Source: Patescibacteria group bacterium (lineage in GTDB: Bacteria > Patescibacteriota > UBA1384 > JBBRAU01). From it: DNA of 64,000 nt. The notes below the pieces were generated by a model. The model saw only the letters and a list, made by a program, of their open reading frames with translations. It was not told where the DNA came from and made no database searches. The stretch covers positions 141,732-205,731 of the forward strand of contig JBBRAU010000001.1 in assembly GCA_038206475.1 (NCBI GenBank), in the 5' to 3' direction. The translations under genes and the position numbers were made by a program. Positions 44,084 through 60,080 of this stretch are shown one piece after another. How positions within the stretch are numbered: the stretch's first letter is position 1; each line of letters begins with the position of its first letter.

Positions 44084-45049
44084 ATGCCACGGCTGCGTCG
44101 TAATCCTTTAACCGGCGACTGGATTATCCTCTCGCCCGAGCGAGCCAAGCGGCCGGAAGAGTACGTCCGTCCGCGCCAGCAGGCTATTTCCGACCCGGCA
44201 GATTGTCCATTTTGCCCAACCGGGCCAGCCTATGCCACGAAGATTGCTGAAACCGAGCATACCTACGTTATCCCTAACCGTTACCCAGCCTTTGTGCCTG
44301 ATGACCAGGTCGTCAGTGATGGCGGCCGCCTGGCGGAAAGTGGTTTGGCGCTTGGCCGGCATGAGGTGATCGTGCGTAAATCGCACACTGAACATTTATT
44401 TGATCTGCCGCCCTCGAGGCTGCATGAGTTGCTTCAGGTATCGGCTAGCCGTCTGGTCAGCGCTAAGCGTGATCCGCGTTTAGAGTATGGCCTGGTTTTT
44501 CACAACCACGGCCATGAAGCCGGCAGCTCAGTTGCCCATCCGCACAGTCAGATGATCGCGGCTGCCTTTGTGCCACCACGGCTGCAAAATCTCATTCGCG
44601 AGCAGAAAATGTTTTACGCTGAGCACCAGCACTGTCTGCTCTGCCGGCTCTGGCAAGCGGAAGCCGAATCGAGGGTACGGGTATTAGCGGAGTCACAGCA
44701 CGCTATCGCCTTTTTGCCTTATGCCAGTCGCTATCCGTATGAAATCTGGTTGGTGCCAAAGCGCCATGCCGCTCATTTTGAGGAAATTGCTGAACATGAG
44801 CTAGCCGGTGTGGCTAGCCTGTTGCACATCGTCTTTAAAACCTTGAAAAGTGCCCTCGATGATCCGCCCATCAATTGGGCAGTTTACAGCAAGCCATTTC
44901 GGCCGCGCATCGGCAACGAAGCCTGGCATTGGTATTTAGAAATTATGCCGCGGCTTGAACACTTCGGTGGCTTTGAGCTGGCCACTGGCGCCATTATCAA
45001 TACGCTCTCGCCGGAGCATGCCACGACCTATTTGCGCAGCAAACGCTAG
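44084..45049 (+). CDS. galT: galactose-1-phosphate uridylyltransferase-like HIT-family nucleotidyltransferase
   Basis: Zn site CPFCP and HIT-like AHPHSQMIA (HxHxQ). Confidence 0.65.
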   Translation: MPRLRRNPLTGDWIILSPERAKRPEEYVRPRQQAISDPADCPFCPTGPAYATKIAETEHTYVIPNRYPAFVPDDQVVSDGGRLAESGLALGRHEVIVRKSHTEHLFDLPPSRLHELLQVSASRLVSAKRDPRLEYGLVFHNHGHEAGSSVAHPHSQMIAAAFVPPRLQNLIREQKMFYAEHQHCLLCRLWQAEAESRVRVLAESQHAIAFLPYASRYPYEIWLVPKRHAAHFEEIAEHELAGVASLLHIVFKTLKSALDDPPINWAVYSKPFRPRIGNEAWHWYLEIMPRLEHFGGFELATGAIINTLSPEHATTYLRSKR

Positions 45050-45756
45050 CTCTGTGGGGTGACGAGGTGCAGGCTGGCCAGGGTGTTGGCAAAGTCGGCA
45101 TCTAACCTCGCGGCGTTGAGCGTGGACAGCGTGTCGGTGAGAGTGACTGACAGCACCTGGCCGCCGATCCAAAAGAAAGCCGCTTGCTCATAGCCGGCGC
45201 TTGTTTTCTTAAACCCAAGCCCGGATAGTCCGGCCGCTTTGACCGTTGCTGCCAGGTAATTCTGGCTCTGTTGGCGCAAGCGGACATCCGGCACGTCAGT
45301 CAGTTTGTCGACCGGATATTTCTTCAGGATTGCCGTGAGCATCATCGCCTCAGCGGCTTGGCGGTCAAGCAAAACGATTGACTCTAAGCTGCCAGCACCG
45401 CGGTTTTGGTCAGCCGTGTATGGCTGAAAGTGGCCAGGGTAGCGCAAACTAAAGTAGTGACCCAAAAAATCGCCACTGGCGGGCGTGGCGCTGGCTGACG
45501 GCGCTGCCGACGGTGGCGCCGAGGTGACAATAACACCTTCAGCACTGGCGCTAAATTTGTAGCGCAGCACAATCACAAGAATCATCAGCGCCACCGATAG
45601 CCAGAGGGTGGTATAGCGATGGTGGTGAGTGTCTGGCGGTGCGGCTTGAGGTTTGGCCAACGGTTCTGCTGCCACGGAAGCAGCGTCAGGCAAAATAAAT
45701 GGCGCCGGATGGGCTCCAGGTTGGACACTGTCCAGTAATCGTAGCGGTTGCCCCAT
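45046..45756 (-). CDS. membrane-anchored secreted protein with Ala/Pro/Ser linker; distant member of paralog family A
   Basis: TM (LWLSVALMILVIVL), linker SAPPSAAPSASATPAS, and a domain opening FSLRYPGHF (compare FSFSYPSTWK and YRVSYPTTWKK in the other two). Confidence 0.5.
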   Translation of the reverse strand: MGQPLRLLDSVQPGAHPAPFILPDAASVAAEPLAKPQAAPPDTHHHRYTTLWLSVALMILVIVLRYKFSASAEGVIVTSAPPSAAPSASATPASGDFLGHYFSLRYPGHFQPYTADQNRGAGSLESIVLLDRQAAEAMMLTAILKKYPVDKLTDVPDVRLRQQSQNYLAATVKAAGLSGLGFKKTSAGYEQAAFFWIGGQVLSVTLTDTLSTLNAARLDADFANTLASLHLVTPQS

Positions 45757-45766: not shown

Positions 45767-46105
45767 TTACTTGGGCGCCTGTACCGTCACCGGCGCAAAC
45801 TGAATAATTTTATCGCTGCTTGGTCGCCACAAGAGCGCCTGTTTGCTGTTTGAAAAAATGAGCAGCCGGTCACCTGAGGCAGCGCGGGCAAAAAATGACT
45901 CGTGCGGCAGCGCGGCTAAATCAGAGACGACCGCTAAAGTCGGTGCTTCGTCTGGTAAATCCGCCATGGTTTTTAGGTGAGAGACAATCTCGGCGGCTGA
46001 GGTTGGTGTAGCTGATGGCTTAGTTGCGGTTCGCGTACGGCGCCAAAACAAACCTACCGCAATCAGTATTGCCACCACAACAAGAAGGGCCAATAAGCGT
46101 TTCAT
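45767..46105 (-). CDS. small membrane-anchored hypothetical protein
   Basis: MKRLLALLVVVAILIAVGLFW TM followed by a ~90-aa domain. ATG 46105 is preferred over the track start at 46168. Confidence 0.45.
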   Translation of the reverse strand: MKRLLALLVVVAILIAVGLFWRRTRTATKPSATPTSAAEIVSHLKTMADLPDEAPTLAVVSDLAALPHESFFARAASGDRLLIFSNSKQALLWRPSSDKIIQFAPVTVQAPK

Positions 46106-46166
46106 GCTCTTAGTGTACCACGGTTTTTCAGCGCCACGACGCGACGGGCTCTGATATACTGGGTGC

Positions 46167-47237
46167 ATGCGTCGATTTTTGGTCCTAACGGCAATACTTT
46201 TGGCTTGGCCAGGGTTGGTGTTGGCCGCTTCACCGGCGAGCGGCCACTATCAGCTGCAGGCTTTTGGTTTTGGCAGCGGCGGTGTGGATAATGCCACCTC
46301 CGGCAGTTACGCCTTAAATGGCATTACCGGCGAAACGAGCGGCGACCAGTTGTCATCTGGCAGTTATAAGGTGGGCTCGGGTCTTATCTTCACTCAGCAA
46401 GCCGATGTGCCGGATGCGCCAACCGTCACCAACCCCGCCAGTTACTACGACAAGCTGCACTTTGTCCTGAATCCGGGTCCAAACGCCTCAGACGCTACCT
46501 TTGCCATAGCGGCTTCAACCGACGGTTTTGTGACGACGAAATACGTCAAGGCTGACCACACCGTCGGCAGCAGCTTGGCGCTCGCCGACTACCAAACCTA
46601 CGTCAACTGGAACAGCGCAAGTGGCTTTGACGTTATTGGCCTGTCCTCTGGCAGCACGTACACATTTAAGGTGAAGGCCATGCACGGAAAATTCACCGAA
46701 ACCGGTTACGGTCCAAGTGCCTCGGTGGCCACGGTTGATCCGTCGCTGGTCTTTGATATTGACGTCGCGGCCACCGACACGGAAACGGCCAGTCCGTACA
46801 TCGCTGACCTTGGCGATTTAACTGCCGGCAGCGTCACCACCGGGGCTGACCGCGTCTGGGTGGACTTGGAGACCAATGCTGACTCTGGTGCGACGGTCTA
46901 TATTTCCTCAGCTAACACCGGTCTGTCGAGTACGTCCGCTGCCCACACCATCGCTTCGTCAAGCACTGATTTAGCCGTGGCCAGCGAAGGCTACGGCGCC
47001 CAGGGCGCCTCGGCCACCCAGTCGGCCGGCGGCCCGCTCAGTTTACTCTCGCCGTACGATGGCAGCGTCTCCAACGTCGGCATTATAGACAGTACACTCA
47101 GAACCATTTTTCGCTCGGCTGGGCCAATTACCGCCGGTCGCGGCTCGTTGCTGTTGAAGGCCAAGATTGCTGCCACTACGCCGGCGGCCGATGATTACAC
47201 CGATAGCCTAACCTTGGTGGCCGCCGGTGTCTATTGA
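46167..47237 (+). CDS. secreted Thr/Ser/Gly/Ala-rich beta-type surface protein, WxL-domain-like (tentative)
   Basis: Signal peptide MRRFLVLTAILLAWPGLVLA. C-terminal motif TTPAADDYTDSLTLVAAGVY is paralogous to the next gene's C-terminus and resembles, as I recall it, the WxL-domain C-terminal signature (YTGTLTWTL.DAP). Confidence 0.5.
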   Translation: MRRFLVLTAILLAWPGLVLAASPASGHYQLQAFGFGSGGVDNATSGSYALNGITGETSGDQLSSGSYKVGSGLIFTQQADVPDAPTVTNPASYYDKLHFVLNPGPNASDATFAIAASTDGFVTTKYVKADHTVGSSLALADYQTYVNWNSASGFDVIGLSSGSTYTFKVKAMHGKFTETGYGPSASVATVDPSLVFDIDVAATDTETASPYIADLGDLTAGSVTTGADRVWVDLETNADSGATVYISSANTGLSSTSAAHTIASSSTDLAVASEGYGAQGASATQSAGGPLSLLSPYDGSVSNVGIIDSTLRTIFRSAGPITAGRGSLLLKAKIAATTPAADDYTDSLTLVAAGVY

Positions 47238-47350
47238 GCCAGCGTTTTTCCTAGTAATTGACAGTGGCATGCAGACCAATAGATACTGTTTTTAGAAGCG
47301 ATTTGTGCGCTCTAGCTGTAACACATAGCGTAATAGAGAAGGATGGACAG

Positions 47351-48586
47351 ATGAAGGACAAAGTAGGTCTACGACCGAAGGTTGCAAGGTTCTGGCTACA
47401 AGGCAGGTCATTGCAATCTCTGGGCGCAAGCACTTGTCGTTTCGGGCAATGGTTTTCTGGCAACACGGAGCGTCTTATCCGATCTCGTCTCGGCGGTTTG
47501 TTGGCCATCTTTGTGCTCTTGATTGGCATGATGCCTATTAGGCGTACCCAAGCTGCCAATCTGTCCGCGGCCTCTATTCAGTTTTACCGCATGCAAACAT
47601 CAGTTCTCGCTAGTTCAACCAATAAAATTCTGGTCATATTTAAACCTGCCACCGCCGTGACTGGTCCGGGGTATGTGAAGCTGACCTTTGCAGGCACCGG
47701 CACGATAGGTGCGGCCAGCTACGGAGTGAATGTTACGCCGGCCAACGTCACGACATCGGTCACCGGTTTGCCCTCAACCTACAATATTGCTGGTAGCGCC
47801 GTAGCGGTCACGGCGGCTCCGCTTTCTGCGGCGGTCGCCGACAGTATCTCGGGCGCTACGGCCACCTTTAAGATGAGCACCACTCCCGGCGGTGACCTAG
47901 CCGCTGGCACTGTTTACGGCTTCTTTATTACCGGCGGCATTACTAATCCATCTTCCAGCGGTCAAATGGTCAATAAAATTGAAACCCTAACCTCGGGCTC
48001 AGCCATTGTTGACAGCCAACGGGTGGCCACGCGCGTGCTCACTAGCGATCAAATTACGGTGACGGCTAAGGTCCCAGCCACTTTCAACTTCACCCTATCA
48101 TCAACCACCGTTGATTTGTCCGACTTGGATCCTTCCTCGGTGGTGTCGGCTGCGTCACCGCCGACGGTCACGATTACCACGAATGCCACCCGCGGGTGGA
48201 CGGCCTGGCTGAAGGATTCAAACTCGCCGGCGGCTCTACACTCGGCCTCGGCCAGCTATGATATTGCCACCGCGGGTACAATCGATGCCACGCCGACCAC
48301 GCTATCGATTGGTTCAGACGGCTACGTGCTGGACGTTGATAACTCAACATCCGGCGGCAAAACGGGCACCGGCACCATCACTGTTGCCGCTGAGTACAAT
48401 GGCGCAACCACCTCGGCTGGCGGCACCTTATCGAACAGCTATCAAGAAATTGCCAAAAGTTCGGGCACGGCTGGTGGTACTGGCGACGTGCTAACGCTGA
48501 CCCCGCGGGCCACCATTTCAGCCATCACGCCAGCCGCCGATGACTACACCGACACCTGGACGGTTATCGGTGCGCCGACGTTCTAA
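47351..48586 (+). CDS. secreted beta-type surface protein, WxL-domain-like (tentative), paralog of 46167
   Basis: Hydrophobic signal region LGGLLAIFVLLIGMM. GWTAWLKD motif. C-terminal ITPAADDYTDTWTVIGAPTF. AAGGATGG precedes ATG 47351 (ORF track 47258). Confidence 0.5.
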   Translation: MKDKVGLRPKVARFWLQGRSLQSLGASTCRFGQWFSGNTERLIRSRLGGLLAIFVLLIGMMPIRRTQAANLSAASIQFYRMQTSVLASSTNKILVIFKPATAVTGPGYVKLTFAGTGTIGAASYGVNVTPANVTTSVTGLPSTYNIAGSAVAVTAAPLSAAVADSISGATATFKMSTTPGGDLAAGTVYGFFITGGITNPSSSGQMVNKIETLTSGSAIVDSQRVATRVLTSDQITVTAKVPATFNFTLSSTTVDLSDLDPSSVVSAASPPTVTITTNATRGWTAWLKDSNSPAALHSASASYDIATAGTIDATPTTLSIGSDGYVLDVDNSTSGGKTGTGTITVAAEYNGATTSAGGTLSNSYQEIAKSSGTAGGTGDVLTLTPRATISAITPAADDYTDTWTVIGAPTF

Positions 48587-49682
48587 ACTCCTGTGCGGGG
48601 TGGTTCTGCTTGTTGGCATGTGGCCCGCGGTTTTGGTGCATGCGGCTTCACCTAGTCCACTCGCCTCACCGAATATTCCAATTGACCAAACCAGTCAATC
48701 GGCTCAAGGTAATCCGCTCAATTTGACGGTGTCGCCAACAGTATTGACCCTGTCGGCCAAGCCGGGGAACACGTTTTCAACGGACATTCGGGTAAAGAAC
48801 AACGGCATCGCGCCGGAGGCTTTGCGTCTTGGCGTCATTAAATTTGCCGCTAACAATACGAGCGGCGAACCGGTGCTGCAGTCTCGGCAAAAAAATGACG
48901 ACTTTTTGAACTGGGTTAGCTTTTCAGCCCCAGTCTTCTCGGCTCAACCCGGCGAGTGGAAAACCATTACCGCCACCTTCAAGTTGCCCACCACCGCCGC
49001 ATTTGGTTATTACTATGCCATTGTTGTGACTAGGCAGAGCCAGCCGATTGATACCGGCAGCCGCCAGATTGGCGTGATTGGCGCGCCGTCGCTGTTGGTG
49101 CTTTTAGCGGTTGAAGCGCCCGGCGCCAAACGCGAAGCCCAGATGGCGAGCTTTTACGCCTCGCGCCAGTGGTATGAGTTCTTGCCGGCTCAGTTTTCGG
49201 TCGAGATTCAGAATAGTGGCAACGTGCACGTGGCGCCACACGGCGATATTTTTGTGAGCCGCGGCGGCCAAGATGGAGCCGACGGTGGCCGCGACATTGC
49301 AACCTTGCCCATCAATGATGATCAGGGTCAAATTCTGCCGAGTTCAAAACGAACATTTCAGGCTAGCTGGACCGCCGGCTTCCCCAGATTTGAGCCACGA
49401 CAGGTTGATGGTCAACCGGTGCTGGACAAGCAGGGCAATCTCAAAATGCACCTGGTGTGGCACTGGAACGATATTGGCCAATTCCGGTTTGGTCGCTACA
49501 CCGCGCATTTAACGCTTGTCTATGACAACGGCAATCAGGATGTGCCAATTGAGGCCACGCTTAATTTCTGGATCATCCCCTGGCGCCTCTTGCTGGCCGC
49601 CGTGTTTATTGCGGCCGGGCTGATTTGGAGTCTATTCTCGCTACTGCGCCGTTTCAAGCGACTCTTCCGCCACGCCGACTAA
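48540..49682 (+). CDS. cell-surface protein with CscA-like architecture (signal peptide, ~280-aa beta-rich ectodomain, C-terminal TM plus basic tail; DUF916/DUF3324-like)
   Basis: Signal LLCGVVLLVGMWPAVLVHA, a beta-rich ectodomain, C-terminal TM WRLLLAAVFIAAGLIWSLFSLL then RRFKRLFRHAD. The architecture is that of the DUF916/DUF3324 partners of WxL proteins in Firmicutes csc loci. The ectodomain itself was not matched to a known motif. Confidence 0.45.
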   Translation: MTTPTPGRLSVRRRSKLLCGVVLLVGMWPAVLVHAASPSPLASPNIPIDQTSQSAQGNPLNLTVSPTVLTLSAKPGNTFSTDIRVKNNGIAPEALRLGVIKFAANNTSGEPVLQSRQKNDDFLNWVSFSAPVFSAQPGEWKTITATFKLPTTAAFGYYYAIVVTRQSQPIDTGSRQIGVIGAPSLLVLLAVEAPGAKREAQMASFYASRQWYEFLPAQFSVEIQNSGNVHVAPHGDIFVSRGGQDGADGGRDIATLPINDDQGQILPSSKRTFQASWTAGFPRFEPRQVDGQPVLDKQGNLKMHLVWHWNDIGQFRFGRYTAHLTLVYDNGNQDVPIEATLNFWIIPWRLLLAAVFIAAGLIWSLFSLLRRFKRLFRHAD

Positions 49683-49700
49683 ATATGCGACAGTAGCGTT

Positions 49701-50615
49701 ATGCGACGACTTCTGCTTTTTTTGGTGCCCCTTTTGGCATGGCCCGCTACTGCCCAGGCTGCCGGCAATGGCGGCTTGGTGCTGTCGCCGGCTTATCAAG
49801 AGGTCAGTTTAGAGACAGGCGTGAGTGCCAAGCGTGTTGTTTTGACGCTGACCAACCAAGCCCAGTCGACAGCAAACCTCAATGTCTCGGCAGTTGATTT
49901 TGGCAACCTCGACAATCATGGTGGTCTGGCCTTCGCCGGTCAACCCGGCATTACGCTCGACAACAGCCATTTGCTGGTTAATTGGCTCGCCTTTGACCGA
50001 ACGACGGTACAAATTAACCCAGGCAAAAGCCAACAACTGACAGTCAGTATCAACAACCGCGATGATCTCACCGCCGGTGGCCATTATGCCGCGGTCTTTC
50101 TCACCGCGTCGGGCAACTATGGCAGCGCCACGCTCAGTTTCACGCCGGCTCTGGCCACCTTGCTCTATGTCAATAAAGTAGGCGCCAGCCAAGTTGGTCT
50201 GGAGCTGCAGTCGATGGCCACAAACTCCGGTTGGAGAACGGTGCCTAGCCAGTTAACGCTTAACTTTCACAATACCGGTGGAATTCACCTAAAGCCGCGC
50301 GGGACTGTTGAGTTAACCGACCCACTTGGCCACCTCTCTAGCCGCGGCATCATCAATGAATCCTCAGCCATTATTCTGCCAGCAGCGGTCCGCCACTACT
50401 CGGTGACGCTGCTCAGTCGGCGTCGCCCCATCTGGCCTGGCCGCTACACCCTCTCGGTGCACTACCGCTACGACGGCCGAGACGACACGACAACCGTCAC
50501 CCGAAGCATTTGGTACCTTGGTTCAGTTGGGCTGGCGGGTCTAGGTCTGGTCGGGGTAGTTTTTATCATAATAATTGTAAGACTAAAGAGAAATAGGTAC
50601 AGGCGTACACTATAA
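49701..50615 (+). CDS. second CscA-like cell-surface protein (signal peptide, beta-rich ectodomain, C-terminal TM plus basic tail)
   Basis: Signal LLLFLVPLLAWPATAQA. C-terminal TM LGSVGLAGLGLVGVVFIIIIV then RLKRNRYRRTL. Confidence 0.45.
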   Translation: MRRLLLFLVPLLAWPATAQAAGNGGLVLSPAYQEVSLETGVSAKRVVLTLTNQAQSTANLNVSAVDFGNLDNHGGLAFAGQPGITLDNSHLLVNWLAFDRTTVQINPGKSQQLTVSINNRDDLTAGGHYAAVFLTASGNYGSATLSFTPALATLLYVNKVGASQVGLELQSMATNSGWRTVPSQLTLNFHNTGGIHLKPRGTVELTDPLGHLSSRGIINESSAIILPAAVRHYSVTLLSRRRPIWPGRYTLSVHYRYDGRDDTTTVTRSIWYLGSVGLAGLGLVGVVFIIIIVRLKRNRYRRTL

Positions 50616-50706
50616 ATAATAAGACATATTACCATCCATAATTGCCCCCGAACAGCGGCCAAATCAGCTGGTATTAAAGTAACGCTCCGCTATACTGAAG
50701 ACAAGG

Positions 50707-53700
50707 ATGGGTAAACTCTTATCGCGGCTATGGGCAAGCGTATTACTCGCAACCATTGTTGTGAGTGTTTCTGGCGTCGCAACCGTCCCAACCGCCCAGG
50801 CAGCCGCCGGTATTCTGCATCAAATTAATTTTCAAGGCAAAGTTGTTAAATCTGACGGCACCAATGTCGCCAACGGCAGCTACGCCTTTGTTTTTAAGCT
50901 CTACGATAATTCGGCTGCCGGAACTCAGCTCGGCAATACGGAAACCCAAAGCCTAACCGTTACCGACGGCATCTTCCGCACAACGTTTTCGGATACGGCC
51001 GCAACTGGCCTACTCGAGAACGTTAATTTTAATTCTGACTCGCTCTACCTCGGGGTTAATTTCAACGGCGACGGCGAAATGACGCCGCGAGTGCGCTTTA
51101 CCTCAGTCCCCTACGCTTTCAATGCCGAGAAGGTAAACGGCCTAGCCGTGACCAATAATGCCGGCAATCCGCTGGCGGCGGGCTCAGCGCTCAAATTGCC
51201 AGACGGAAAAATAGTCGAATTTTCTGGCAGCAATAACCTAACCCTAACGACGACCGGGAATACGGTCGCGACCTTGCCGTCCGGCACGATCACCCTGGCC
51301 GACTTGAGCAGCACACAAGTCTTTAGCGGTGCCAAAACGTTTTCAGACTTGACCGTCTCCGACACCAACATCGCCCTGTCTGGTGCCTCAACCATCTTCA
51401 CCGGCACCGGAGCAATAACAGTCACGCCGGGCGGCGGCGGTGCTTTGAGCTTAAACTCGGCCGGAACCGGCAATACTGCTATTGGCAATGGCACCGGTAC
51501 CTTCCAACTCGACTCAAATACGCTTGACATCTCAACCGCCGGTGCCTTAAGTGGTGTCACCGGTATTGCCAGCTCCGGCGCCTACACCCAAACCGGTGTC
51601 AGCGCCAACACTTTCTCTGGGGCGACCACCTTCTCGGCGGCTGGTACGGCTGTATCGGTCACCAACGATGTTGGCATCGGCGGCGTTCTCCAAGTTGGTT
51701 CAACCACACCAACCACTTACTCCAGGCTCGGCACCAATACCACTGGTCATTCGCTTGGCGCGGCCTCAGACTTATTGGTCTCGGGCAATATTGAAGTTGA
51801 TGGCTCAGCCTTCTTTGACGGCACCGTGAGCTATGGCGGTGGTGCCAACTTTACGTTGACCACCAGCGCAAACAACATAACAACCGTTGCCGTTTCAACC
51901 ACCCAAACCGCAACCGGCGCCTTAACCGCCTCAACTGGTCTGTCCAGTCTCTGGCAGAGCAGTGCCGTAGTGGCTGGTGTTGGCGTTAGTCAAACCGCCT
52001 ACGGTAACTACACCACGGCTACTAAAACCGGGGCTGACACCGCTACCGGCACTTACAGCCTGTATGGCGATTACGCCAGCGTCAGCAATACCGGCTCGAC
52101 GAACGCCGGTACCAAAAATACTTACGGCGCGGCCTACTCGGCCACTGGCGATACGGCTGGTGCCTCAACTGCAACCGGACTGACAGTGACCGCCTCTGGT
52201 GCTGACACCAATCGTGGCCTTGAGATAACCGGCCCCACCTCAGCCGCCAACAACTATGCCCTGTACTCATCAGCCGCCGCTCAGTCGGTCATGGCTGGCA
52301 ACTTGCGGATTGGCTCAACTACCGCGCCAAACGTGGCACTGGATGTCACCGGCGCCGGCACCTTCTCTTCAACGCTGACGGCTTCAAATGGTCTCACGGT
52401 TTCAGCTGGTGGTGCCACGGTCGGTGGCAGCTCAACCGTCACTGGCACTTTGGGCATTTCTTCCTATCTCCAGGTTGGCTCGGTCACTGGTACCACCTAT
52501 TCGCGACTGGGCACGGGAGCAACTAACCACAGTCTGGCTGGCGCTGACAGTTTATTTGTCACTGGCAACTTGGAGGTTGACGGGTCGACCTATTACGATG
52601 GTGGCGTCACCTACGGCTCTGGCACCACCTATGACTCAACCGTCACCTTCAACTCCGATGTAGACTACGCCTTGGCTGGCACTGAAAACGTGACAATCAA
52701 CAATAGTAGCTACTCGACGCCATCAGCTGGCCTGCTCGATATTGCCGCAACTAGCAGCACAGATGACGTTCGCGTATTGCAAGCGGCGCTTACCTACTCT
52801 GCCACAGGGGCCGCGACTGGCTACACCAGCCGCAGCAGTTTTGCTAGCTCAGCCGTAGTGGCCGGAGCCGGCGTTTCCCAAACCGGCTATGCCAATTACA
52901 ACACCGCCACAAAAACCGGAGCAGATACGGCTACCGGCACCTATACGCTTTATGGTAGCTACAATACCGCTTCTAATACTGGCTCATCAGCCGGGACGAA
53001 AGTGACTATCGGCGGCGCCTTTACCGCTGTCGGTGATACTGGCGGCACCTCAACCGCCAAAGGCCTTACCGTCACTGCCTCAGGCGCCGATACCAACTAC
53101 GGTATTGAAATTACCGGTCCAACCTCGGCTACCAATAACTATGCCATCTACTCCAGTGCGGCGGCGCAATCGGCCATTGCTGGCAACGTGCGGGTTGGCT
53201 CAACCACGGCGCCTACGGTGGCATTAGATGTCACCGGCGCGGGATTGATTTCCTCAACCTTAGGCGTTTCTTCGACACTGACGGCCTCTAATGGTTTCAT
53301 CCAAACCACCGGCGCATTGAGTTTGACAGCTAGCTCTGGCTCATCGGCCATTACCCAAAGTGTTTTTGCCATTACTTCAACAGTCACCTCGGGCAACGGC
53401 TTCTCGGTGGCCTCGTCAACGGTTGACTCAGGCAACGTGGTGAGTCTCAATTCAACCAGCACGGCTGCCGCCTCTAACTCCCAAACCGTCTTAAACGTCG
53501 CCACCTCCGGCGCCAACGGTGCCTCAACTCAAACCACCTATGGCGCCAAAATTGCTAACACGCACACTGGCACTTCTTCCACTAATGTTGGTGGCTACTT
53601 CAGCGCCTCCGGCGGCACCAACAACTATGCCGCTATTTTTGACCAAGGCAATGTTGGTGTTGGCAACCCCACACCTTCACAGGCACTGAGCGTGACAGGG

Positions 53701-56700
53701 AGAGTTGCCATTGCTCCAAGCGGTACTGTCTCTGATGAACAGTACAACGGCAATTTGGTTATCACTAAACCAGTGTCCAGTGGACAGTACGTTAACCTAA
53801 TACGAGCTGGCACCTATGGATGGTCCCTGGGCTACGCCTACAACACCAGTACTTTCGCTATAGGCACTATTCAGGGAATAGACTCCAACTTTACTGCCCC
53901 TGCGCTGCAACTAGGAGCAAATGGAAACTTAACCATAACCGGATCCGTAACTGGCACTCAGTTAGTCTCGAATATTGCCACTGGCACCGCGCCCTTGCTC
54001 ATTACCTCAACCACCGTTGTGCCAAACCTTAACGTCTCACAGTTACTTGGTTCCACCTGGGCCGCCCCCGGGGCCATAGGTTCCACCACTCCCAACACCG
54101 GTGCTTTCACCACCCTGACCACCACCGGTACCATTAACTCCCAGGCCATCTCAGCCACCGCCGCCTTAACCGGCACCCTCTCCGTTGCCTCCACCTTAAC
54201 TGCCTCCAGTGGCTTGACTCAGACCACGGGAGCGCTCAATTTAACCGCCACCAGCGGCGCGCTGGCTATCTCTGGCTTAACCTCCGCCGCCCTGGCCACC
54301 GCCGCCTTAACCTTAAACACCACCGGTACTGGTACCACTCAAATTGGCAATGGCACCGGTACCTTCCAACTCGACTCAAATACGCTTGACATCTCAACGG
54401 CCGGTGCCTTAAGTGGTGTCACCGGTATTGCCAGCTCCGGCGCCTACACCCAAACCGGTGTCAGCGCCAATACCCTCACCGGCGCAACCTCCCTCACTGC
54501 CGCCGGCACCGCCCTTGCCGTTACCAACAACGCCACGATCGGCGGTACACTGACTGTTGGCGCCGTCTCGTCTGCCTCTGGTGCCGGTATTTTTGATTCG
54601 CTGAGCGTGGGTGGCGGTTACGGTTCAACCGGCGTCAGTATCTCGAATACCGGCAATATCCAAGCCAATGGCACGCTTACGGTGGATTCGACAATCGGCA
54701 TTGGTGGCGCTCCAGCGAGCTCAGCCGGGCTGCTGACCACCGGTGCTATCACCGCCACCACCAGTCAGTATGGCGTTGAGGCGGCCAACACCTTTAGCTC
54801 AGCGGCCACCACCGGTGCCAGCTTCTACGCTCTACCGCAGACGGCGGCAGCGGCTTATACCGTCACCAGTCTGTATAATTACCTCGCCTCTAATGCCAGC
54901 CTTGGCGTGGGCAGTGCTGTCACTAACCAATATGGTTTCTACAGCCCCGACTTAACTAGCGGCAGTAATAACTACGGTTTCTATGCCAATATTTCCTCGG
55001 GGACTAATAAATACGCCTTCTATGGTGGCGGCAATGCCCCGAGTTACTTTGGCGGCAACGTCGGTATTGGCACCGCGTCACCGAGTAACAAACTAACCAC
55101 TGTAGACACTGCAGGCGGTGTTCTTTGGCCAGGCATTCGTATCAAGAATGCCGCCAATTCCGTCAATACTGGTGCGGCCATAGAATTCAGTGTCCTGAAC
55201 GGTAGCAATGCGGAAACGGTGATGGGTCAGATAGGCGCCGCAGTTAACTCGGGGACGGCTGGTAGCGAGTTTGGTTACCTTACATTTCGGGCCAGTGTAG
55301 GTGGTACGCCGACAGAGGTGCTTCGTGTCTGGCCGGGGGCTGCGAGTACTACCCAGACCTCTATTACGCAAAGCACCGGTTCATCAGGACTGAATGTCAT
55401 CATTCCCTCCTATGTTGCAAATTCATACACCCCCGGCCTCTTCTGGAGCACGGCGGATAACAATCCATCAAAGCCGAAGGCGGGCATTTATACTCAGCTT
55501 ACGGCAACGGGGACCTATCTTTTGCTGGGCACTTCAAATTCATATGCAACAGGCATTACCAGCAACGTTATTATCGATCCAACCGGCAATGTCACTGGCG
55601 GCACCTACAACGGCCAGACCATCTCCAGTGCCGCCAGTTTCACCGGCACGGTTGGGGTGGCCAACTCGGTCACCGCACCAACGGTTAACGTTGGCACCGC
55701 CGGTGCTTCAACCGGAGTACTCAACCTGTCAGGGGCGACCTCTGGTACCATCTCCATCAAAGGTCAGGCCGCCGCTGGCAGCTACAACTTTAACTTACCA
55801 ACCACGGTTGGTTCTTCCGGTTTCGTGCTTACTTCAGCGGGCGGGGGAGTCACCGCCATGACCTGGACTGATCCGGCTGGTCTGACGGCAGGGACTGCCA
55901 CCAGCGTGCTCTTCTCCGGTGTGCAAGCCGCCACCAACACCGGCCAGGCACTGCTGGTTGGTAATGGCTCCTCATTAGGTGTGACCGGCACCGGCACCAT
56001 CAACGCCACCACCCTGCTTGGTTCTACTTGGGCTATCCCCGGGGCCATAGGTTCCACCACTCCCAACACCGGTGCTTTCACTACGGTCGCTTCAACCGGT
56101 ATTGCCTCATCGGGTAGCTATACCCAGACCGGAAGCGGTGCCAATACGTTCACTGGCGCCTCATCATTCACTGCCGCCGGTACGGCGCTAACAGTTAATA
56201 ATAGTGCTCAGATTTCCGGTGTAGTGGGGGTGGGTGGTGCTACTTATTCAAGTACGGGTCTAATCATCAGAAACACAAACTTAGCAACCGCTGATCAATA
56301 TGGTGCCTATATTTCGCCCACCTTTAACTCTTCTGCTACTCACGGAGCCGGCGGCGTTGTGTCTTCCCCCTCTACTAGTGCAGCTGCGTTTACGATTCCC
56401 ATACTCTATGACTACTATGCAGGCATTGTTTCAATTGGTGCTGGAAGCAGCGTCACTACTCAGTATGGCTACTTTGCGGAAGACCTGACTGGTGCCACCA
56501 ATAGCTACGGATACTTCAGTAACATGTCCTCGGGGGCTAATAAGTACGCTTTCTATGGGGCAGGGACGGCGGCTAGCGTCTTTCTGGGCAATGTTGGTGT
56601 TGGCACCAGCGGACCTTTGGCCAAACTACATGTCTCATCGGGCGACAGTGCAGTAATTAGCTTAGTTTCAGGTGTTAGCAAGGGTATCCGCTTTGGTGCT

Positions 56701-58923
56701 AACTCCTCGACGGCCATCATTAATGGTGTTGATAACACTGGTACAGGTTCATATCAGCCCCTGTCGCTTGGCGGTTCTGAGTTGCGGTTCAACAACTCCG
56801 CCGTGGAAGTGGCCAGGCTTAATTCCAGTGGTAATCTGGGCGTTGGTGCTACGACCACTATTTCCGCTCGGCTGCACTCTCTTGCCACCACCGAGCAGCT
56901 GCGCTTGGGCTATGATGCCGCCAACTACGCCGCCTTTACCGTCTCCTCCGGCGGCAACCTGACGCTGGCACCAACTGGCGGCACGACGAACGCTGCGGGT
57001 GCCCTGGCCGTGACTACTTCAATTACCGCACCAACCCTCTACGGCGGTGCTGCCTCCGGCGGCAATCTCACCCTCTCCTCTACCAGCAACGCTACGAAGG
57101 GTAAATTACTGATGGGCGGCTCTGCCTTTGTGGAATCAGCTAACCAGCTTGGCCTTGGCACTACCGCCCCAGACGCAAAGCTATCTATCGCCATAGCTCA
57201 GGCAGGTACCCAGTACATTCAGGGCCAGTTTGCCGGAACCAATACCGCTTCCGATCTTGGTAAGTTCCGGGTAGGTGGGGGCGAGATTGGTACTGGCGGC
57301 GTTGACCGGGCCTACCTTGAGGTGCGCCAGACCTGGAACGGTGCTACTACTGATACTGAACTAGGCCTCTATTCCACCAAGGGCGGGATTGGCGGCGGCG
57401 AGCGGCTGACAGTGCTGGGGAGCGGAAACGTCGGTATCGGTAATACTAACCCTGCCGCCTTACTCAGCGTGGGTAGCGGCGACAAATTACAAGTAGGCGC
57501 AACCGGCAACCTCAAACTCACCAACGTCACCACCGGCTCCAACACCAGTTCCCCCACCATCAACTTGGAAGGCAACGGCTTCACCGCTGGCCCCACCAAC
57601 ACCACCGGCTCCTTCTCCATGCAGACCATCCCCAGCAGTGCCACGGCTGCCAAGCTGATGATCGCCGTTACTGGCTTTGCCACCCAGAACGTTGCCTCAC
57701 TGACTGAAGCCGGTGCCTGGATTACCAAAGGCGCCCAAACCGCTAGCGGTACGCCGGACGTAGCTGAGTTTATTGGCACCACGGCCGAAGTGACTGCCGG
57801 AGACGTGGTAGTAGCGGCCGCTGGCCAGAACGGCAACGAGAACTTTGTAGCCACCCGCAACAGTGTACGCGGCAACCCCAGCGTCATTGGCGCCATTGCC
57901 GACGGTACCTCCGGCGTGCAGATCAATTCGTACGGCCAGTACAACGACTTCACCAATGGCACGCTCAGCAATAAGGGCAAACCGATGACTATTGCCGGCC
58001 GTATTCCGGTCAAGGTGACAACCCGCGGCGGCAGCCAACCCATTCTCCGTGGCGACCTCCTTATGGCCTCCGACAAGCCCGGTTACGCCGAGAAGTATGA
58101 TCCCGCCTCCGGCCCTTTGGTCGGCATCATCGGCGTTGCTCTAGACGAATTGCCTGCGGGCGACGGTAAGGTTTTTGCCCAGATCCAAATCTCTCGTGTC
58201 AGCGCTTCTCAGGCGCTTCTCGGCACAGCGCAGGATCTCGGTATCACTACGCTTACTGTTTCCAGCTCAGCTCTGTTCAAAGGAGACTTGAACGTGATTG
58301 GCAATGTGACGATCGGCGGCAGTTTGACTATTGGTAGCTCAAGTACGTCTAAGCTGGTTTTTAGGGTGCTTGGTCAGTCGCAATTTGGCAGCGACACCGA
58401 CAACCTGGCGATTAGTGAAAAGGGCCAGCTAACCCGCCATGGCCAGGCCACCACTAACCAGACTTTAGAGAACCTAGGCAAAGTGAGTGCAGCCAGCCCA
58501 ACCAATGTTTTGCCGCTGACTACGCTAATAGGCGCGGCTACTATTTCGTCTAGCCTGAGCCAGCCTGATGTGCCGCGCAACGTAACCTTGACAGCCATCG
58601 GCCTACGCGGCCTGGTCACGGTCAAGGGCATCTTGGCCGACAGCACCGAGGCGAGTGAGCAATTTAATGTCGTGGCTGACGGAATGATGCTTGGTCAAAA
58701 AGCCTTCCTGTCCATTAATAACGTGTCGGTGCCGGGTGCTGGGCAAATAAGTCTGGGTACTGGCCAAAAGCTGGGTCTGTCTAATAGTTTGCACGGTCAA
58801 AATGGTGTCTACTTGACACAAAAAGACGCCGCCCGAGTTACAGCGCAAGTGGATAGCCAAAACAGCACCGTTGACCTGGGACCATTAAATGGTGAAGCCA
58901 TTAAAATTTGGTACCGCTACTAA
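50707..58923 (+). CDS. giant secreted repeat protein (2738 aa) with tail-fibre-like Gly/Thr/Ser/Ala-rich beta repeats
   Basis: Signal peptide MGKLLSRLWASVLLATIVVSVSGVATVPTAQA. Repeated modules NNYA(I/L)YSSAAAQS..AGN.R.GSTTAP.VALDVTGAG and NKYAFYG.G.A.S.F.GNVG(I/V)GT..P..KL.V. Large internal duplications: near-identical ~130-bp DNA at 51481-51610 and 54346-54478, and ~85-bp at 54041-54125 and 56021-56100. No C-terminal TM or LPXTG. Confidence 0.75.
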   Translation: MGKLLSRLWASVLLATIVVSVSGVATVPTAQAAAGILHQINFQGKVVKSDGTNVANGSYAFVFKLYDNSAAGTQLGNTETQSLTVTDGIFRTTFSDTAATGLLENVNFNSDSLYLGVNFNGDGEMTPRVRFTSVPYAFNAEKVNGLAVTNNAGNPLAAGSALKLPDGKIVEFSGSNNLTLTTTGNTVATLPSGTITLADLSSTQVFSGAKTFSDLTVSDTNIALSGASTIFTGTGAITVTPGGGGALSLNSAGTGNTAIGNGTGTFQLDSNTLDISTAGALSGVTGIASSGAYTQTGVSANTFSGATTFSAAGTAVSVTNDVGIGGVLQVGSTTPTTYSRLGTNTTGHSLGAASDLLVSGNIEVDGSAFFDGTVSYGGGANFTLTTSANNITTVAVSTTQTATGALTASTGLSSLWQSSAVVAGVGVSQTAYGNYTTATKTGADTATGTYSLYGDYASVSNTGSTNAGTKNTYGAAYSATGDTAGASTATGLTVTASGADTNRGLEITGPTSAANNYALYSSAAAQSVMAGNLRIGSTTAPNVALDVTGAGTFSSTLTASNGLTVSAGGATVGGSSTVTGTLGISSYLQVGSVTGTTYSRLGTGATNHSLAGADSLFVTGNLEVDGSTYYDGGVTYGSGTTYDSTVTFNSDVDYALAGTENVTINNSSYSTPSAGLLDIAATSSTDDVRVLQAALTYSATGAATGYTSRSSFASSAVVAGAGVSQTGYANYNTATKTGADTATGTYTLYGSYNTASNTGSSAGTKVTIGGAFTAVGDTGGTSTAKGLTVTASGADTNYGIEITGPTSATNNYAIYSSAAAQSAIAGNVRVGSTTAPTVALDVTGAGLISSTLGVSSTLTASNGFIQTTGALSLTASSGSSAITQSVFAITSTVTSGNGFSVASSTVDSGNVVSLNSTSTAAASNSQTVLNVATSGANGASTQTTYGAKIANTHTGTSSTNVGGYFSASGGTNNYAAIFDQGNVGVGNPTPSQALSVTGRVAIAPSGTVSDEQYNGNLVITKPVSSGQYVNLIRAGTYGWSLGYAYNTSTFAIGTIQGIDSNFTAPALQLGANGNLTITGSVTGTQLVSNIATGTAPLLITSTTVVPNLNVSQLLGSTWAAPGAIGSTTPNTGAFTTLTTTGTINSQAISATAALTGTLSVASTLTASSGLTQTTGALNLTATSGALAISGLTSAALATAALTLNTTGTGTTQIGNGTGTFQLDSNTLDISTAGALSGVTGIASSGAYTQTGVSANTLTGATSLTAAGTALAVTNNATIGGTLTVGAVSSASGAGIFDSLSVGGGYGSTGVSISNTGNIQANGTLTVDSTIGIGGAPASSAGLLTTGAITATTSQYGVEAANTFSSAATTGASFYALPQTAAAAYTVTSLYNYLASNASLGVGSAVTNQYGFYSPDLTSGSNNYGFYANISSGTNKYAFYGGGNAPSYFGGNVGIGTASPSNKLTTVDTAGGVLWPGIRIKNAANSVNTGAAIEFSVLNGSNAETVMGQIGAAVNSGTAGSEFGYLTFRASVGGTPTEVLRVWPGAASTTQTSITQSTGSSGLNVIIPSYVANSYTPGLFWSTADNNPSKPKAGIYTQLTATGTYLLLGTSNSYATGITSNVIIDPTGNVTGGTYNGQTISSAASFTGTVGVANSVTAPTVNVGTAGASTGVLNLSGATSGTISIKGQAAAGSYNFNLPTTVGSSGFVLTSAGGGVTAMTWTDPAGLTAGTATSVLFSGVQAATNTGQALLVGNGSSLGVTGTGTINATTLLGSTWAIPGAIGSTTPNTGAFTTVASTGIASSGSYTQTGSGANTFTGASSFTAAGTALTVNNSAQISGVVGVGGATYSSTGLIIRNTNLATADQYGAYISPTFNSSATHGAGGVVSSPSTSAAAFTIPILYDYYAGIVSIGAGSSVTTQYGYFAEDLTGATNSYGYFSNMSSGANKYAFYGAGTAASVFLGNVGVGTSGPLAKLHVSSGDSAVISLVSGVSKGIRFGANSSTAIINGVDNTGTGSYQPLSLGGSELRFNNSAVEVARLNSSGNLGVGATTTISARLHSLATTEQLRLGYDAANYAAFTVSSGGNLTLAPTGGTTNAAGALAVTTSITAPTLYGGAASGGNLTLSSTSNATKGKLLMGGSAFVESANQLGLGTTAPDAKLSIAIAQAGTQYIQGQFAGTNTASDLGKFRVGGGEIGTGGVDRAYLEVRQTWNGATTDTELGLYSTKGGIGGGERLTVLGSGNVGIGNTNPAALLSVGSGDKLQVGATGNLKLTNVTTGSNTSSPTINLEGNGFTAGPTNTTGSFSMQTIPSSATAAKLMIAVTGFATQNVASLTEAGAWITKGAQTASGTPDVAEFIGTTAEVTAGDVVVAAAGQNGNENFVATRNSVRGNPSVIGAIADGTSGVQINSYGQYNDFTNGTLSNKGKPMTIAGRIPVKVTTRGGSQPILRGDLLMASDKPGYAEKYDPASGPLVGIIGVALDELPAGDGKVFAQIQISRVSASQALLGTAQDLGITTLTVSSSALFKGDLNVIGNVTIGGSLTIGSSSTSKLVFRVLGQSQFGSDTDNLAISEKGQLTRHGQATTNQTLENLGKVSAASPTNVLPLTTLIGAATISSSLSQPDVPRNVTLTAIGLRGLVTVKGILADSTEASEQFNVVADGMMLGQKAFLSINNVSVPGAGQISLGTGQKLGLSNSLHGQNGVYLTQKDAARVTAQVDSQNSTVDLGPLNGEAIKIWYRY

Positions 58924-59154
58924 CCATTATCTTTCGTAATCACATGTGGTGATGGGTAGGCATTGCTTCGCTTCGCTCAAGCGATGGGTCGAGTTTATAC
59001 CAATGCACGGAGTGGCCCCACCCCATGTCATTGCGCGCAGCAAAGCGACGAAGTAATCTCACCATTGACGTTCTGGGCCTTACAAACTCCCAGCCGCTTG
59101 CCTATCAGCCAATACATAGACAGACTAAACGCGCATAATACAAAAAGGAGACAC

Positions 59155-59697
59155 GTGTTCAAGCAGCAAAAGCTCGGTTTTACCTTAATTGAGCTGTTAG
59201 TGGTGATTGGCATTATCGCCATCCTGACCGCTCTTTTGGTGCCGACCATTACCAACGCCCGCAAGCGCTCGACGGTCAGCAAAGTGGTTGATGTGTTGGA
59301 GCGCGAGTGCCAGGCCGCCAAAAATTATATGGTCGGTGGTGGCACAGCCAACAGCTATGCTTCAACGCTGGTAGATCGTAGCGGTTTACCTGGCCCGAAC
59401 GCAGTAGCTGGTGCAACCAACTACTGGGCGCTTGGCAGTGTCACTTCGGCGAATTACGGCGGCAGTTTTTCGGCATTGCCCGCCCCCGGCGCCACAACTC
59501 CGCTGGCAATTGGGCTTTCATGGCAACGGGACAGCGCTACCATTGGTACTGGCTACAACGATATAGCGATCGGTCGAACTCGCCTTGGGAAATATGGTGC
59601 AGGGTTGTACTGTGTGACCGATGCCGATGCCTCAGCACCCATTCGATACTATGCCGTTGACAGCACCACTACTGCCACCCTCCTCTATTCCGGCTGA
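59155..59697 (+). CDS. type IV pilin-like protein, paralog 4
   Basis: AAAAGGAG 4 nt before GTG 59155 gives MFKQQKLG then [30 protein letters not shown]. The ORF track extends upstream to 58963. Confidence 0.85.
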   Translation: MFKQQKLGFTLIELLVVIGIIAILTALLVPTITNARKRSTVSKVVDVLERECQAAKNYMVGGGTANSYASTLVDRSGLPGPNAVAGATNYWALGSVTSANYGGSFSALPAPGATTPLAIGLSWQRDSATIGTGYNDIAIGRTRLGKYGAGLYCVTDADASAPIRYYAVDSTTTATLLYSG

Positions 59698-59789: not shown

Positions 59790-60080
59790 ATGTGCTATAA
59801 TAATGGCATGATCCGTAATTATCTGTGGTTCAAACCACGCCCGCTGGCTGATTTGGCCGATGTTGAGAGCATTCACCATGTTCTCCGCTATGGCAGTTTA
59901 GAGGAGGTGGCCGAGTTGCGCACCCAGCTGGGTCTCGCACGACTAAGGCAGGTTTTTTTGAGCGCACCGCAGAAGATTTACACCCCGGCGGCGCTGCACT
60001 TTATCAGCCAGTACGTGCTAAAAATTGACACGCCAGTAAACGACCGTGCCTACCTCACCACTGCGCCTCGACATTCTTGA
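59790..60080 (+). CDS. small protein upstream of, and overlapping, the AbiEii-like gene (putative cognate antitoxin/AbiEi-like fragment)
   Basis: 96 aa. Overlaps the next gene by 35 nt, which suggests translational coupling. The antitoxin call is by position only. Confidence 0.35.
   Translation: MCYNNGMIRNYLWFKPRPLADLADVESIHHVLRYGSLEEVAELRTQLGLARLRQVFLSAPQKIYTPAALHFISQYVLKIDTPVNDRAYLTTAPRHS

Follow-up and report, generated by a model that had tools for sequence, protein, structure and literature searches.

In the 64,000-nucleotide stretch of Patescibacteria DNA analyzed here (the window), five same-strand genes, P1 to P5 (46167–58923), probably represent a variant CPR/Patescibacteria Pam pilus operon, with chaperones and no usher, and the cluster most likely builds a Pam pilus-type surface filament. 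This reading rests on the homology of P2 to Pam pilins, on the Pam-type C-terminal domain and PamT-like N-terminus of P1, and on the presence of PamR genes upstream in related loci. The Pam system as such is already known from a 2026 preprint on Candidatus Mycosynbacter amalyticus and other CPR bacteria (Troman et al., 2026; 10.64898/2026.03.03.709456), in which the PamA and PamB filaments were solved, and from the NCBIfam models NF058578 (PamR), NF058579 (PamT), and NF058581 (Pam pilin C-domain). The module is thus not uncharacterized, as a preliminary description of this DNA had proposed.

An ORF check of the window recovered all six ORFs of that description, including the five surface genes in the same orientation (Table 1). 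The last 47 nt of P2 also encode the start of P3. A start codon and a Shine–Dalgarno sequence support the likely start of P2, and tblastn alignments of P2 relatives begin at residue ~60–100 of the long ORF. ComEC (41113–42384) and three further N_methyl pilins at 33905–37700 (33905–34507, 36649–37146, and 37146–37700) were located upstream of the module, as described, and the housekeeping genes dnaK, grpE, ruvC, and yebC lie near it. The type IV pilin, whose likely GTG start sits behind the Shine–Dalgarno sequence AAAGGAG, does follow downstream; however, it was syntenic in only 1 of 80 related loci (tblastn) and is not a module member. A promoter and terminator scan returned signal at chance level. 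Scans of single window proteins against Pfam, NCBIfam, and PHROG gave almost no matches, so that useful homology signal came only from scans of whole families.

Table 1. Features of the putative Pam-type module and its immediate neighbors (window positions).
Feature	Position	Strand	Description
X	45046..45756	-	236 aa; N-terminal membrane helix and ~150-aa outer domain; outside the region of the preliminary description
Small membrane protein	45767..46168	-	133 aa; divergent from P1; possible accessory gene
P1	46167..47237	+	356 aa; secreted subunit with signal peptide
P2	47351..48586	+	Probable two-domain Pam-type pilin; ORF opens at 47258, likely start ATG 47351
P3	48540..49682	+	Membrane-anchored chaperone-like protein, WxLIP/PamC-D type
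P4	49701..50615	+	Second membrane-anchored chaperone-like protein
P5	50707..58923	+	2738-aa secreted repetitive fiber-like protein
Type IV pilin	59155..59697	+	N_methyl 5.6e-7; neighbor outside the conserved module

The 80 related loci were gathered through P1, and partner genes were sought with tblastn. The order P1-P2-P3-P4-P5 was repeated in most of them, which bears out the expected five-gene co-occurrence in related genomes. P2 was detected in 73 loci, P3 in 62, P4 in 55, and the P5 N-terminus in 43; loci missing module genes were mostly short contigs. Co-occurrence of the module genes is well beyond chance, and P1 is the most conserved component. Nearly all loci carried two to four subunit genes and two or three chaperone genes, with six chaperone-like ORFs in one locus. 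The module is chromosomally conserved across many CPR lineages and was located at 276 or more sites in species-representative genomes.

X adds a sixth conserved component to the module. Its homologs (57 ORFs in the 80 loci, jackhmmer) always lay inside the module, in the P4/P5 gap, in the arrangement PamR-X-P1, or in the P1/P2 gap. No Pfam family was common to 53 scanned X relatives, and neither X nor PamR showed significant profile similarity to chaperones or pilins. In 12 related loci, X and P1 were immediately preceded by a PamR-family gene, and overlapping gene ends were seen in the PamR-X-P1 arrangement of locus L050; jackhmmer seeded with a PamR identified no homolog among window ORFs of at least 80 aa. 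Homologs of the 133-aa protein, for which no Pfam or PHROG match was obtained, occurred 3' of P5 in 6 of the 80 loci (tblastn), and its association with the module is weak.

P1 and P2 had been described as two WxL-like proteins with a shared C-terminal motif. The motif proved to belong to a common C-terminal domain of ~170 aa (32% identity, E 2e-11; 99.2% between the family profiles), which ends in DYTDSLTLVAAGVY in P1 and in DYTDTWTVIGAPTF in P2. The D and Y of this motif do not vary among the relatives (53 for P1, 62 for P2), of which 92–98% terminate in F. Against the canonical Pam pilin family, the P2 family reached an hhalign probability of 98.8% (E 6e-17) over 313 columns spanning both domains, and the C-terminal domain of P1 reached 86–94%; controls remained below 2%, except for 37% to the P5 N-terminal family, mainly through signal peptides. 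This comparison was made through the NCBIfam models and relatives in locus L033: the canonical family was anchored by L033:2620-3777, which scores 96 bits against NF058581 (cutoff 55), and the PamR beside this pilin, ~5 kb upstream of the module in L033, passes NF058578 (423 bits vs. 300).

In P1, an fn3 domain (~79–190) precedes the Pam-pilin-like C-terminal domain (~191–356). The N-terminal segment (aa 21–78) resembles the PamT N-terminus and is conserved yet disordered in the predicted monomer model, as expected if it folds only on a partner. P1 scored 30.7 bits against NF058579 (cutoff 240) at model positions 8–82 only, and this match is a shared N-terminal segment, not an equivalog. Neither P1 nor P2 matched NF058581 at E ≤ 1; the model was absent from the complete family list of the 53 P1 relatives and among the 25 of 47 families listed for a set including 46 P2 relatives. 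The WxL model PF13731 was absent, at E ≤ 1, from the complete family list of the 53 P1 relatives and among the 25 of 95 families listed for a set including 46 P2 relatives. P1 and P2 gave less than 2% against WxL by hhalign, alignments of WxL with the pilin C-domain at several settings were colinear and not significant (P 0.03–0.16), and the solved WxL chain 9i25_A was not matched in a PDB sequence search. By these Pfam, hhalign, and PDB searches, P1 and P2 are not detectable as WxL proteins, and only a likeness in the last-strand motif is left; as judged by profile comparison, P1 and P2 are Pam-type pilins instead. The C-terminal domain of P2 had no tblastn match in plasmids.

The two CscA-like membrane proteins fared better. 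P3 and P4 are paralogs (E 4e-10; 99.9% between the family profiles), each with the signal peptide, C-terminal hydrophobic helix, and basic tail previously ascribed to them. P3 has two beta-sandwich domains between its signal peptide and membrane helix, and the AF2 model of P4 (pLDDT 88.7) contains two beta-sandwiches and a helix at 274–303. PF06030 (WxLIP_PGBD, formerly DUF916) was matched by 50 of 89 P3/P4-family members (best E 1.1e-6), and PF11797 (DUF3324) by two of the 89. Because the window P3 and P4 themselves lie below Pfam detection (no WxLIP model at E ≤ 1), the WxLIP link is visible only through their families. When compared with a profile of nine Firmicute DUF916–DUF3324 proteins, P4 reached 98.5% (E 2.9e-15, 253 columns) and P3 97.9% (E 5.8e-13, 303 columns) by hhalign, with controls at or below 3%. 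A Firmicute WxLIP HMM detected 35 CPR ORFs at E ≤ 0.01, all 35 of which belong to the chaperone set. EfmWxLIP1 was the sole PDB sequence match of the P4 family profile. The best Foldseek matches of the P4 model were the E. faecium WxLIP structures 9i1y and 9i25_C, followed by CfaA, CsuC, FimC, and Caf1M, with E values of 1e-10 to 1e-8 against WxLIP and dozens of chaperone–usher chaperones.

The chaperone adjoining the canonical Pam pilin in L033 matched the P4 HMM at E 4e-36, and the P4 family comprises 11,916 representatives at E ≤ 1e-3 (50% identity). On sequence evidence, P3 and P4 are remote homologs of Firmicute WxLIP/CscA (DUF916–DUF3324–TM), and the predicted structure indicates that they have the chaperone–usher chaperone fold. 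A sequence-level link between Pam-type chaperones and WxLIP was not found in the searchable literature. The search for WxL, DUF916, and DUF3324 profiles thus detected the latter two in the P3/P4 families and not the first. Of the preliminary interpretation, the CscA/WxLIP relatives and the gene co-occurrence stand, whereas WxL identity, membership of the pilin, and uncharacterized status do not.

A broader proposal, which we advance tentatively and hold to be somewhat less than an even prospect, is that Pam pili and WxL/Csc clusters are two branches of one ancient usher-less, chaperone-assisted system for surface assembly in single-membrane bacteria. On this view, WxLIP/CscA would serve as a membrane-tethered PapD-like chaperone rather than bind peptidoglycan or the host. 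WxL domains would be Pam-type acceptor domains that have diverged, polymerization or hand-over by strand exchange would be conceivable for WxL proteins, and the giant fiber would replace the 'large WxL' adhesin.

The homologies, folds, topology, and synteny observed for the module suggest how filament formation, subunit order, and donor-strand exchange might be arranged in a Pam pilus variant. All module products would be exported by Sec. P3 and P4 would be held on the cytoplasmic membrane by their C-terminal helix and, like PapD/FimC and WxLIP, may cap the incomplete beta-sandwich of the subunit C-terminal domain. P2, as a two-domain pilin, would polymerize through a strand that it donates to its neighbor's C-terminal domain. 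P1 would be a specialized subunit, most likely at one fiber end, in which the fn3 domain and the PamT-like segment replace the pilin N-domain, and X is a sixth conserved component, located in the membrane. P5 is the likely host-binding adhesin: its variable distal part may set specificity, and its conserved N-terminal domain may dock on a conserved part of the machine, for which P1 is our guess.

The giant secreted protein was correctly described as repetitive: P5 has a signal peptide, read from the translation, and large internal duplications, consists of 54% T/G/A/S, and contains no Cys. Only its N-terminal ~250 aa are conserved and syntenic, and the remainder is variable. Homologs of 1500–4700 aa carry LamG, Peptidase_S74, Peptidase_G2, CBM, YadA, or M23 domains; P5 itself had no Pfam, NCBIfam, PHROG, or PDB sequence match. 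An independent surface fiber or S-layer-like coat, co-transcribed with the pilus genes and not physically attached, would agree with the separate signal peptide, with the restriction of conservation to the N-terminal ~250 aa, and with the lack of homology of P5 to the pilin C-domain and chaperone profiles (hhalign ≤1.3%). However, in 43 loci P5 immediately follows the chaperones (or X); it lacks a membrane anchor or recognizable wall-binding domain of its own and combines a conserved N-terminal module with a variable fiber, the usual design for docking on conserved machinery. We consider its independence doubtful.

Several points count against the Pam reading. Every window protein falls below the Pam NCBIfam cutoffs, no PamR homolog was found among window ORFs, and a tip adhesin would not usually be the most conserved component, as P1 is. 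In addition, the solved Firmicute homolog 9i25 is a stable WxLIP–WxL complex, not a filament. This structure of WxLIP with a long WxL protein, the failure to find a PamR anchor/terminator in the window, the sequence homology of P3 and P4 to WxLIP, and the description of WxLIP as a stabilizing partner of WxL proteins (PMC10599100) would all suit a non-filamentous WxL/Csc-type surface complex, in which P1 and P2 are monomers or small oligomers, P3 and P4 permanent partners, and P5 a co-displayed adhesin. Such a complex is nevertheless unlikely, given that P2 is a full-length homolog of Pam pilins, which the preprint solved as filaments, that P1 and P2 have no detectable WxL domain, and that several subunit paralogs occur per locus, as in multi-pilin fibers. 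A prophage or tailocin remnant, with P5 as the phage tail fiber and the other genes as phage structural or assembly proteins, recalls the Peptidase_S74 or Peptidase_G2 domains of some P5 homologs, typical of phage tail fibers and spikes, but is hardly credible and was rejected given that P1, P2, P5, and two upstream ORFs have no PHROG match and that the neighbors are housekeeping genes, with Sec signal peptides on all products and chromosomal conservation across many CPR lineages also against it.

CPR/Patescibacteria, which account for a large part of bacterial diversity, live attached to the cells of their hosts. The findings suggest that the Pam pilus machinery reaches well beyond the canonical operon, with a chaperone family of about 12,000 representatives at 50% identity. 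Since this machinery appears to be coupled to a giant fiber that is conserved in its N-terminal domain and variable elsewhere, the fiber is a concrete candidate for a host-range determinant. The homology of P3 and P4 also links two separately described systems, the Pam pilus and the WxL-interacting proteins on the surface of lactic acid bacteria. It qualifies the idea of a Pam system without relatives outside CPR and suggests, for the long-puzzling WxL/Csc clusters of enterococci, listeriae, and lactobacilli, a mechanism open to testing, namely, chaperone-like strand complementation.

Among known systems, the Pam pilus is the closest counterpart. The preprint places a 'tail fibre-like protein' at the center of the pam neighborhood and describes PamC and PamD as PapD/FimC-like chaperones in which a C-terminal transmembrane helix is retained (10.64898/2026.03.03.709456); PamR is an RbmA-like membrane-anchored terminator and PamT the tip subunit. 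The module resembles this system in its two-domain beta pilins, which are exported by Sec and conserved in their C-terminal domain (P2 being homologous over its full length), its pair of PapD/FimC-like chaperones carrying a membrane helix at the C-terminus, the PamT-like N-terminus of P1, a PamR adjoining the module in related genomes, a nearby fiber-like giant protein, and its CPR hosts. It differs in that the window proteins all miss the Pam model cutoffs, the pilin N-domain is replaced by an fn3 domain in P1, a PamR was not found among the window ORFs, and a conserved extra membrane protein, X, is part of the module. The window holds the smallest common set of two subunits and two chaperones, and the ATP synthase neighbors of the preprint are not among its annotated genes, which cover the sequence after the first 26 kb.

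The TLP-1a/b fibrils (CryoSeek, PNAS 2024, PMC11494351; PDB 9IKJ/9IKK) show only 9% identity, and their protomer has a single domain and forms a tubule by n to n+4 assembly; the predicted structures that match them best are from a Flavobacteriales bacterium, and the similarity may be only a shared beta-sandwich. With the chaperone–usher pili of Gram-negative bacteria (Pap, Fim, Caf1, Csu, CFA/I), the module shares a two-domain chaperone fold as predicted for P4 (Foldseek E about 1e-9 to 1e-8 against CfaA, CsuC, FimC, Caf1M, DraB, SafB, and CupB2), a conserved extreme C-terminus on the subunits, and a presumed donor-strand mechanism. In contrast to those pili, it has membrane-tethered chaperones, two-domain subunits, and neither usher nor outer membrane. 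No usher family was detected among the module genes or scanned neighbors, and an outer membrane is not expected in a CPR bacterium. P3 and P4 had no sequence match to the PapD families in Pfam, and their nearest sequence relatives are the WxLIPs.

In the WxL/Csc clusters of Lactobacillales, CscA is the WxLIP (DUF916, DUF3324, and TM), CscB/C are WxL proteins, and CscD is a small LPXTG protein. P3 and P4 are remote WxLIP homologs across both domains, with the same topology, and in both systems at least two secreted beta-rich partners, one often very large, stand beside the membrane-anchored protein. The last strand of the partners is also alike ('Y-T-T-T-L-T-W-x-L' in WxL and 'D-Y-T-D-T-L-T-V-V-A' in Pam). 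In contrast, P1 and P2 have no detectable WxL domain, an LPXTG sorting signal is absent from the translations of P1–P5, no CscD-like gene occurs in the module, and the module resides in a CPR bacterium instead of a Firmicute. Its partner proteins, moreover, come from a family shown elsewhere to form filaments.

Five consecutive genes on the + strand encode two secreted beta-rich proteins (P1, P2), two membrane-anchored proteins (P3, P4) and a giant repetitive protein (P5), downstream of ComEC and three further type IV pilins. Gene order, protein features and the flanking pilins and ComEC can all be read in the sequence; therefore, the five-gene, same-strand locus of the preliminary description was confirmed, including signal peptides, a shared C-terminal domain, paralogy and P5 repeats. 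The P2 ORF opens 31 codons ahead of the likely start (47258-47350), with an unusually long N-region before the signal peptide, and the ATG of P3 lies within the end of P2 (47-nt overlap, 48540-48586). P3 beginning at this ATG was absent from the protein collection; P3 is therefore probably annotated with another start.

Features of the locus and its surroundings (window coordinates)
Feature	Coordinates	Strand	Remarks
P1	46167-47237	+	Sec-type signal peptide in translation
P2	ORF opens 47258, likely start ATG 47351	+	Sec-type signal peptide in translation
P3	48540-49682	+	Sec-type signal peptide in translation
P4	49701-50615	+	Sec-type signal peptide in translation
P5	50707-58923	+	Sec-type signal peptide in translation
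Type IV pilin	likely start GTG 59155		3' of P5; N_methyl match
X	45046-45756	-	236-aa single-pass membrane protein
Small membrane protein, 133 aa	45767-46168	-	divergent from P1; homologues 3' of P5 in 6 loci
Lamin-tail + fn3 protein, 917 aa	26232-28985	+	carries both domains
AbiEii-type nucleotidyltransferase toxin domain	60046-60711	+	just 3' of type IV pilin

The 133-aa membrane protein may be a further accessory gene, and the 917-aa protein is likely another surface protein, unrelated to the P1-P5 module. A small ORF (59790-80) preceding the AbiEii-type gene may encode an antitoxin. Annotation covered the window from about 26 kb onwards.

P3 and P4 are paralogous (family profiles, 99.9%), each ending in a hydrophobic helix and a basic tail. 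They had been called CscA-like, after the DUF916-DUF3324 membrane proteins (WxLIPs) of Firmicute WxL/Csc clusters. In Pfam, this relationship held for the families but not for the window's own P3 and P4, which matched no WxL-related family: among 89 scanned members, 50 matched PF06030 (WxLIP_PGBD, formerly DUF916; best E 1.1e-6) and two matched PF11797 (formerly DUF3324). For comparison, nine proteins annotated as DUF916-DUF3324 and eleven WxL proteins were taken from Lactobacillales plasmids. The hhalign results showed that the P4 family (98.5%, E 2.9e-15, 253 columns) and the P3 family (97.9%, E 5.8e-13, 303 columns) align with WxLIPs, with all cross-controls at ≤3.1%. An HMM built from the nine WxLIPs matched 35 of 2,954 CPR ORFs at E≤0.01, every one of them within the chaperone-like set (136/2,954), and EfmWxLIP1 was the sole target of the P4-family profile in the whole PDB. 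In the AF2 model of P4 (pLDDT 88.7), two beta-sandwich domains precede a C-terminal helix; the top Foldseek hits of this model were solved structures of E. faecium WxLIP (9i1y and 9i25_C). Family Pfam, hhalign, HMM, PDB and Foldseek evidence thus supports the CscA-like assignment as correct. Directly after WxLIP came dozens of chaperone-usher chaperones (CfaA, CsuC, FimC, Caf1M, DraB, SafB, CupB2) and RbmA; judged from the model, P3 and P4 also resemble PapD-type chaperones.

P1 and P2 share a C-terminal domain of ~170 aa (BLASTP 32% identity, E 2e-11; family profiles 99.2%), and the reported common motif is present at their ends, DYTDSLTLVAAGVY and DYTDTWTVIGAPTF. Across 53 P1 and 62 P2 relatives, D-Y is invariant and the final residue is F in 92-98%. 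The proposal that these are WxL-like proteins found no support. Among the families matched by the 53 P1 relatives, listed in full, the WxL family PF13731 did not occur, nor was it among the 25 of 95 families listed for a set including 46 P2 relatives; hhalign gave <2% under all settings tried; and PDB profile searches with P1 and P2 did not recover the solved WxL chain 9i25_A, which the WxL profile itself did recover from the same set. The weak best alignments to WxL were colinear, always pairing the last strands. P1 and P2 matched Pam pilins, those of the CPR pilus system, instead. Residues 4-78 of P1 match the N-terminus of the NCBIfam model for the CPR-type pilus protein PamT (E 2e-7), as do 29/53 P1 relatives. 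The canonical Pam pilin family aligned with both domains of the P2 family (98.8%, E 6e-17, 313 columns). It also aligned with the P1 C-terminal domain (86-94%), and its own C-terminus, ...AGVYTSTLTLVATATY, bears the motif first reported for P1 and P2. By sequence, P1 and P2 are Pam-type pilins. In the AF2 model of P1 (pLDDT 82.5), an fn3 domain (79-190) is confidently predicted and the C-terminal domain (194-356) forms a beta-sandwich. Residues 18-75 have pLDDT <50, yet their columns are 62% conserved, the pattern expected if this stretch becomes ordered only when bound to a partner.

P5 (2738 aa; T/G/A/S 54%, no Cys) contains large internal duplications (318-589 with 578-884; 1108-1463 with 1765-1974) and had no match in Pfam, NCBIfam, PHROG or PDB sequences. 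Its homologues are giant CPR proteins of 1500-4700 aa with only the N-terminal ~250 aa in common, some carrying LamG, CBM, YadA-head, M23, Peptidase_S74 or Peptidase_G2 domains. Receptor-binding fibres are built in this way, with a conserved end for docking and a distal region that varies. An identical 36-aa stretch occurs at residues 265-300 and 1219-1254 (51499-51606, 54361-54468), which suggests recent intragenic recombination; older duplications show 40-67% identity. Over 50000-58000, the P5 region, GC skew falls to about -0.13, strongly negative in contrast to the remainder of the window; the codon composition of this T/G/A/S-rich protein probably accounts for it.

More than 500 P1 homologues were found at 50-60% identity, all named ones from CPR/Patescibacteria metagenome-assembled genomes. 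From 276 P1 relatives in species-representative genomes, 80 loci were kept. Co-occurrence of the five genes was borne out by tblastn: there were hits to P2 in 73 loci, to P3 in 62, to P4 in 55 and to the N-terminus of P5 in 43, missing cases being mostly on short contigs. The type IV pilin, previously listed with the locus, was present in 1/80 loci and is a neighbour rather than a member. In HMM searches, 2-4 genes per locus encoded the shared C-terminal domain in nearly all cases, alongside 2-3 genes for chaperone-like proteins (L035 has six chaperone-like ORFs); the window's two subunits and two chaperones are the commonest minimal set. X, lying outside the region first described and without a Pfam match, is a sixth conserved gene of the module: 57 homologous ORFs occur in the 80 loci, in most inside the module, between P4 and P5, between P1 and P2, or as PamR-X-P1. 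The window's X is placed upstream, on the opposite strand. L003, L010, L037, L075 and about 24 more loci are titled in GenBank as, for example, 'uncultured Bdellovibrionales', 'Gammaproteobacteria', 'Burkholderiaceae' or 'Nanoarchaeia'. Their P1 shares up to 99.5% identity with that of Saccharibacteria- or Moraniibacteriota-titled MAGs, and these titles are probably wrong. Many record titles being unreliable, restriction of the module to CPR is likely rather than certain.

Ties to canonical Pam genes were sought in ORFs from Saccharimonadia loci. In L033, a protein passing the Pam pilin C-domain model NF058581 (96 bits; cutoff 55) stands beside a PamR (NF058578, 423 bits; cutoff 300), both (1595-4794) about 5 kb upstream of the P1-P5 module. 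In L050 (8278-11017), PamR, X and P1 are consecutive with overlapping gene ends; a PamR-family gene lies just upstream of X and P1 in twelve loci. A single genome can thus hold this module as well as canonical Pam genes. The chaperone beside the canonical pilin matches the P4 HMM (E 4e-36).

Given the observed homologies, folds, topology and synteny, we consider it fairly probable that the locus is a Pam-type pilus module, and we infer the formation of filaments, the order of the subunits and the attachment of P5. All parts would be exported by Sec; membrane-tethered P3 and P4 would cap the incomplete C-terminal sandwich of the subunits; P2 would polymerise through strand exchange; P1 would be a specialised subunit, probably terminal; and P5 would be an adhesin docking via its conserved N-domain. 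Docking between P1 and P5 is held with much less confidence. The main alternative is a WxL/Csc-like complex at the cell surface that forms no filament and has P3 and P4 as permanent partners.

The Pam-type reading places the locus within a system already described, so that it is a variant rather than the uncharacterised module first proposed. In the Pam pilus of Ca. Mycosynbacter amalyticus, the two-domain pilins PamA and PamB were solved as donor-strand-exchanged filaments, PamC and PamD are chaperones that bear a membrane helix at the C-terminus, PamT, PamE and PamR are further components, and the gene neighbourhood centres on a 'tail fibre-like protein' (Troman et al., 2026; 10.64898/2026.03.03.709456). 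Insertion of a DUF916 strand into the WxL domain had also been predicted (Hassan et al., 2023; PMC10599100). That Pam-type chaperones are related in sequence to Firmicute WxLIPs appears undescribed: the Troman et al. preprint mentions neither WxL, DUF916 nor DUF3324, the ten best-ranked papers for combined WxL/CPR terms do not mention WxL, and 'WxL' and 'donor strand' occurred together only in a general review. The WxL domain itself may be a diverged Pam acceptor domain. Compared with the Pam system, the window's proteins fall under every Pam model cutoff, no PamR was found in the window, P1 has an fn3 domain, and the module includes the extra conserved gene X and the giant fibre P5.
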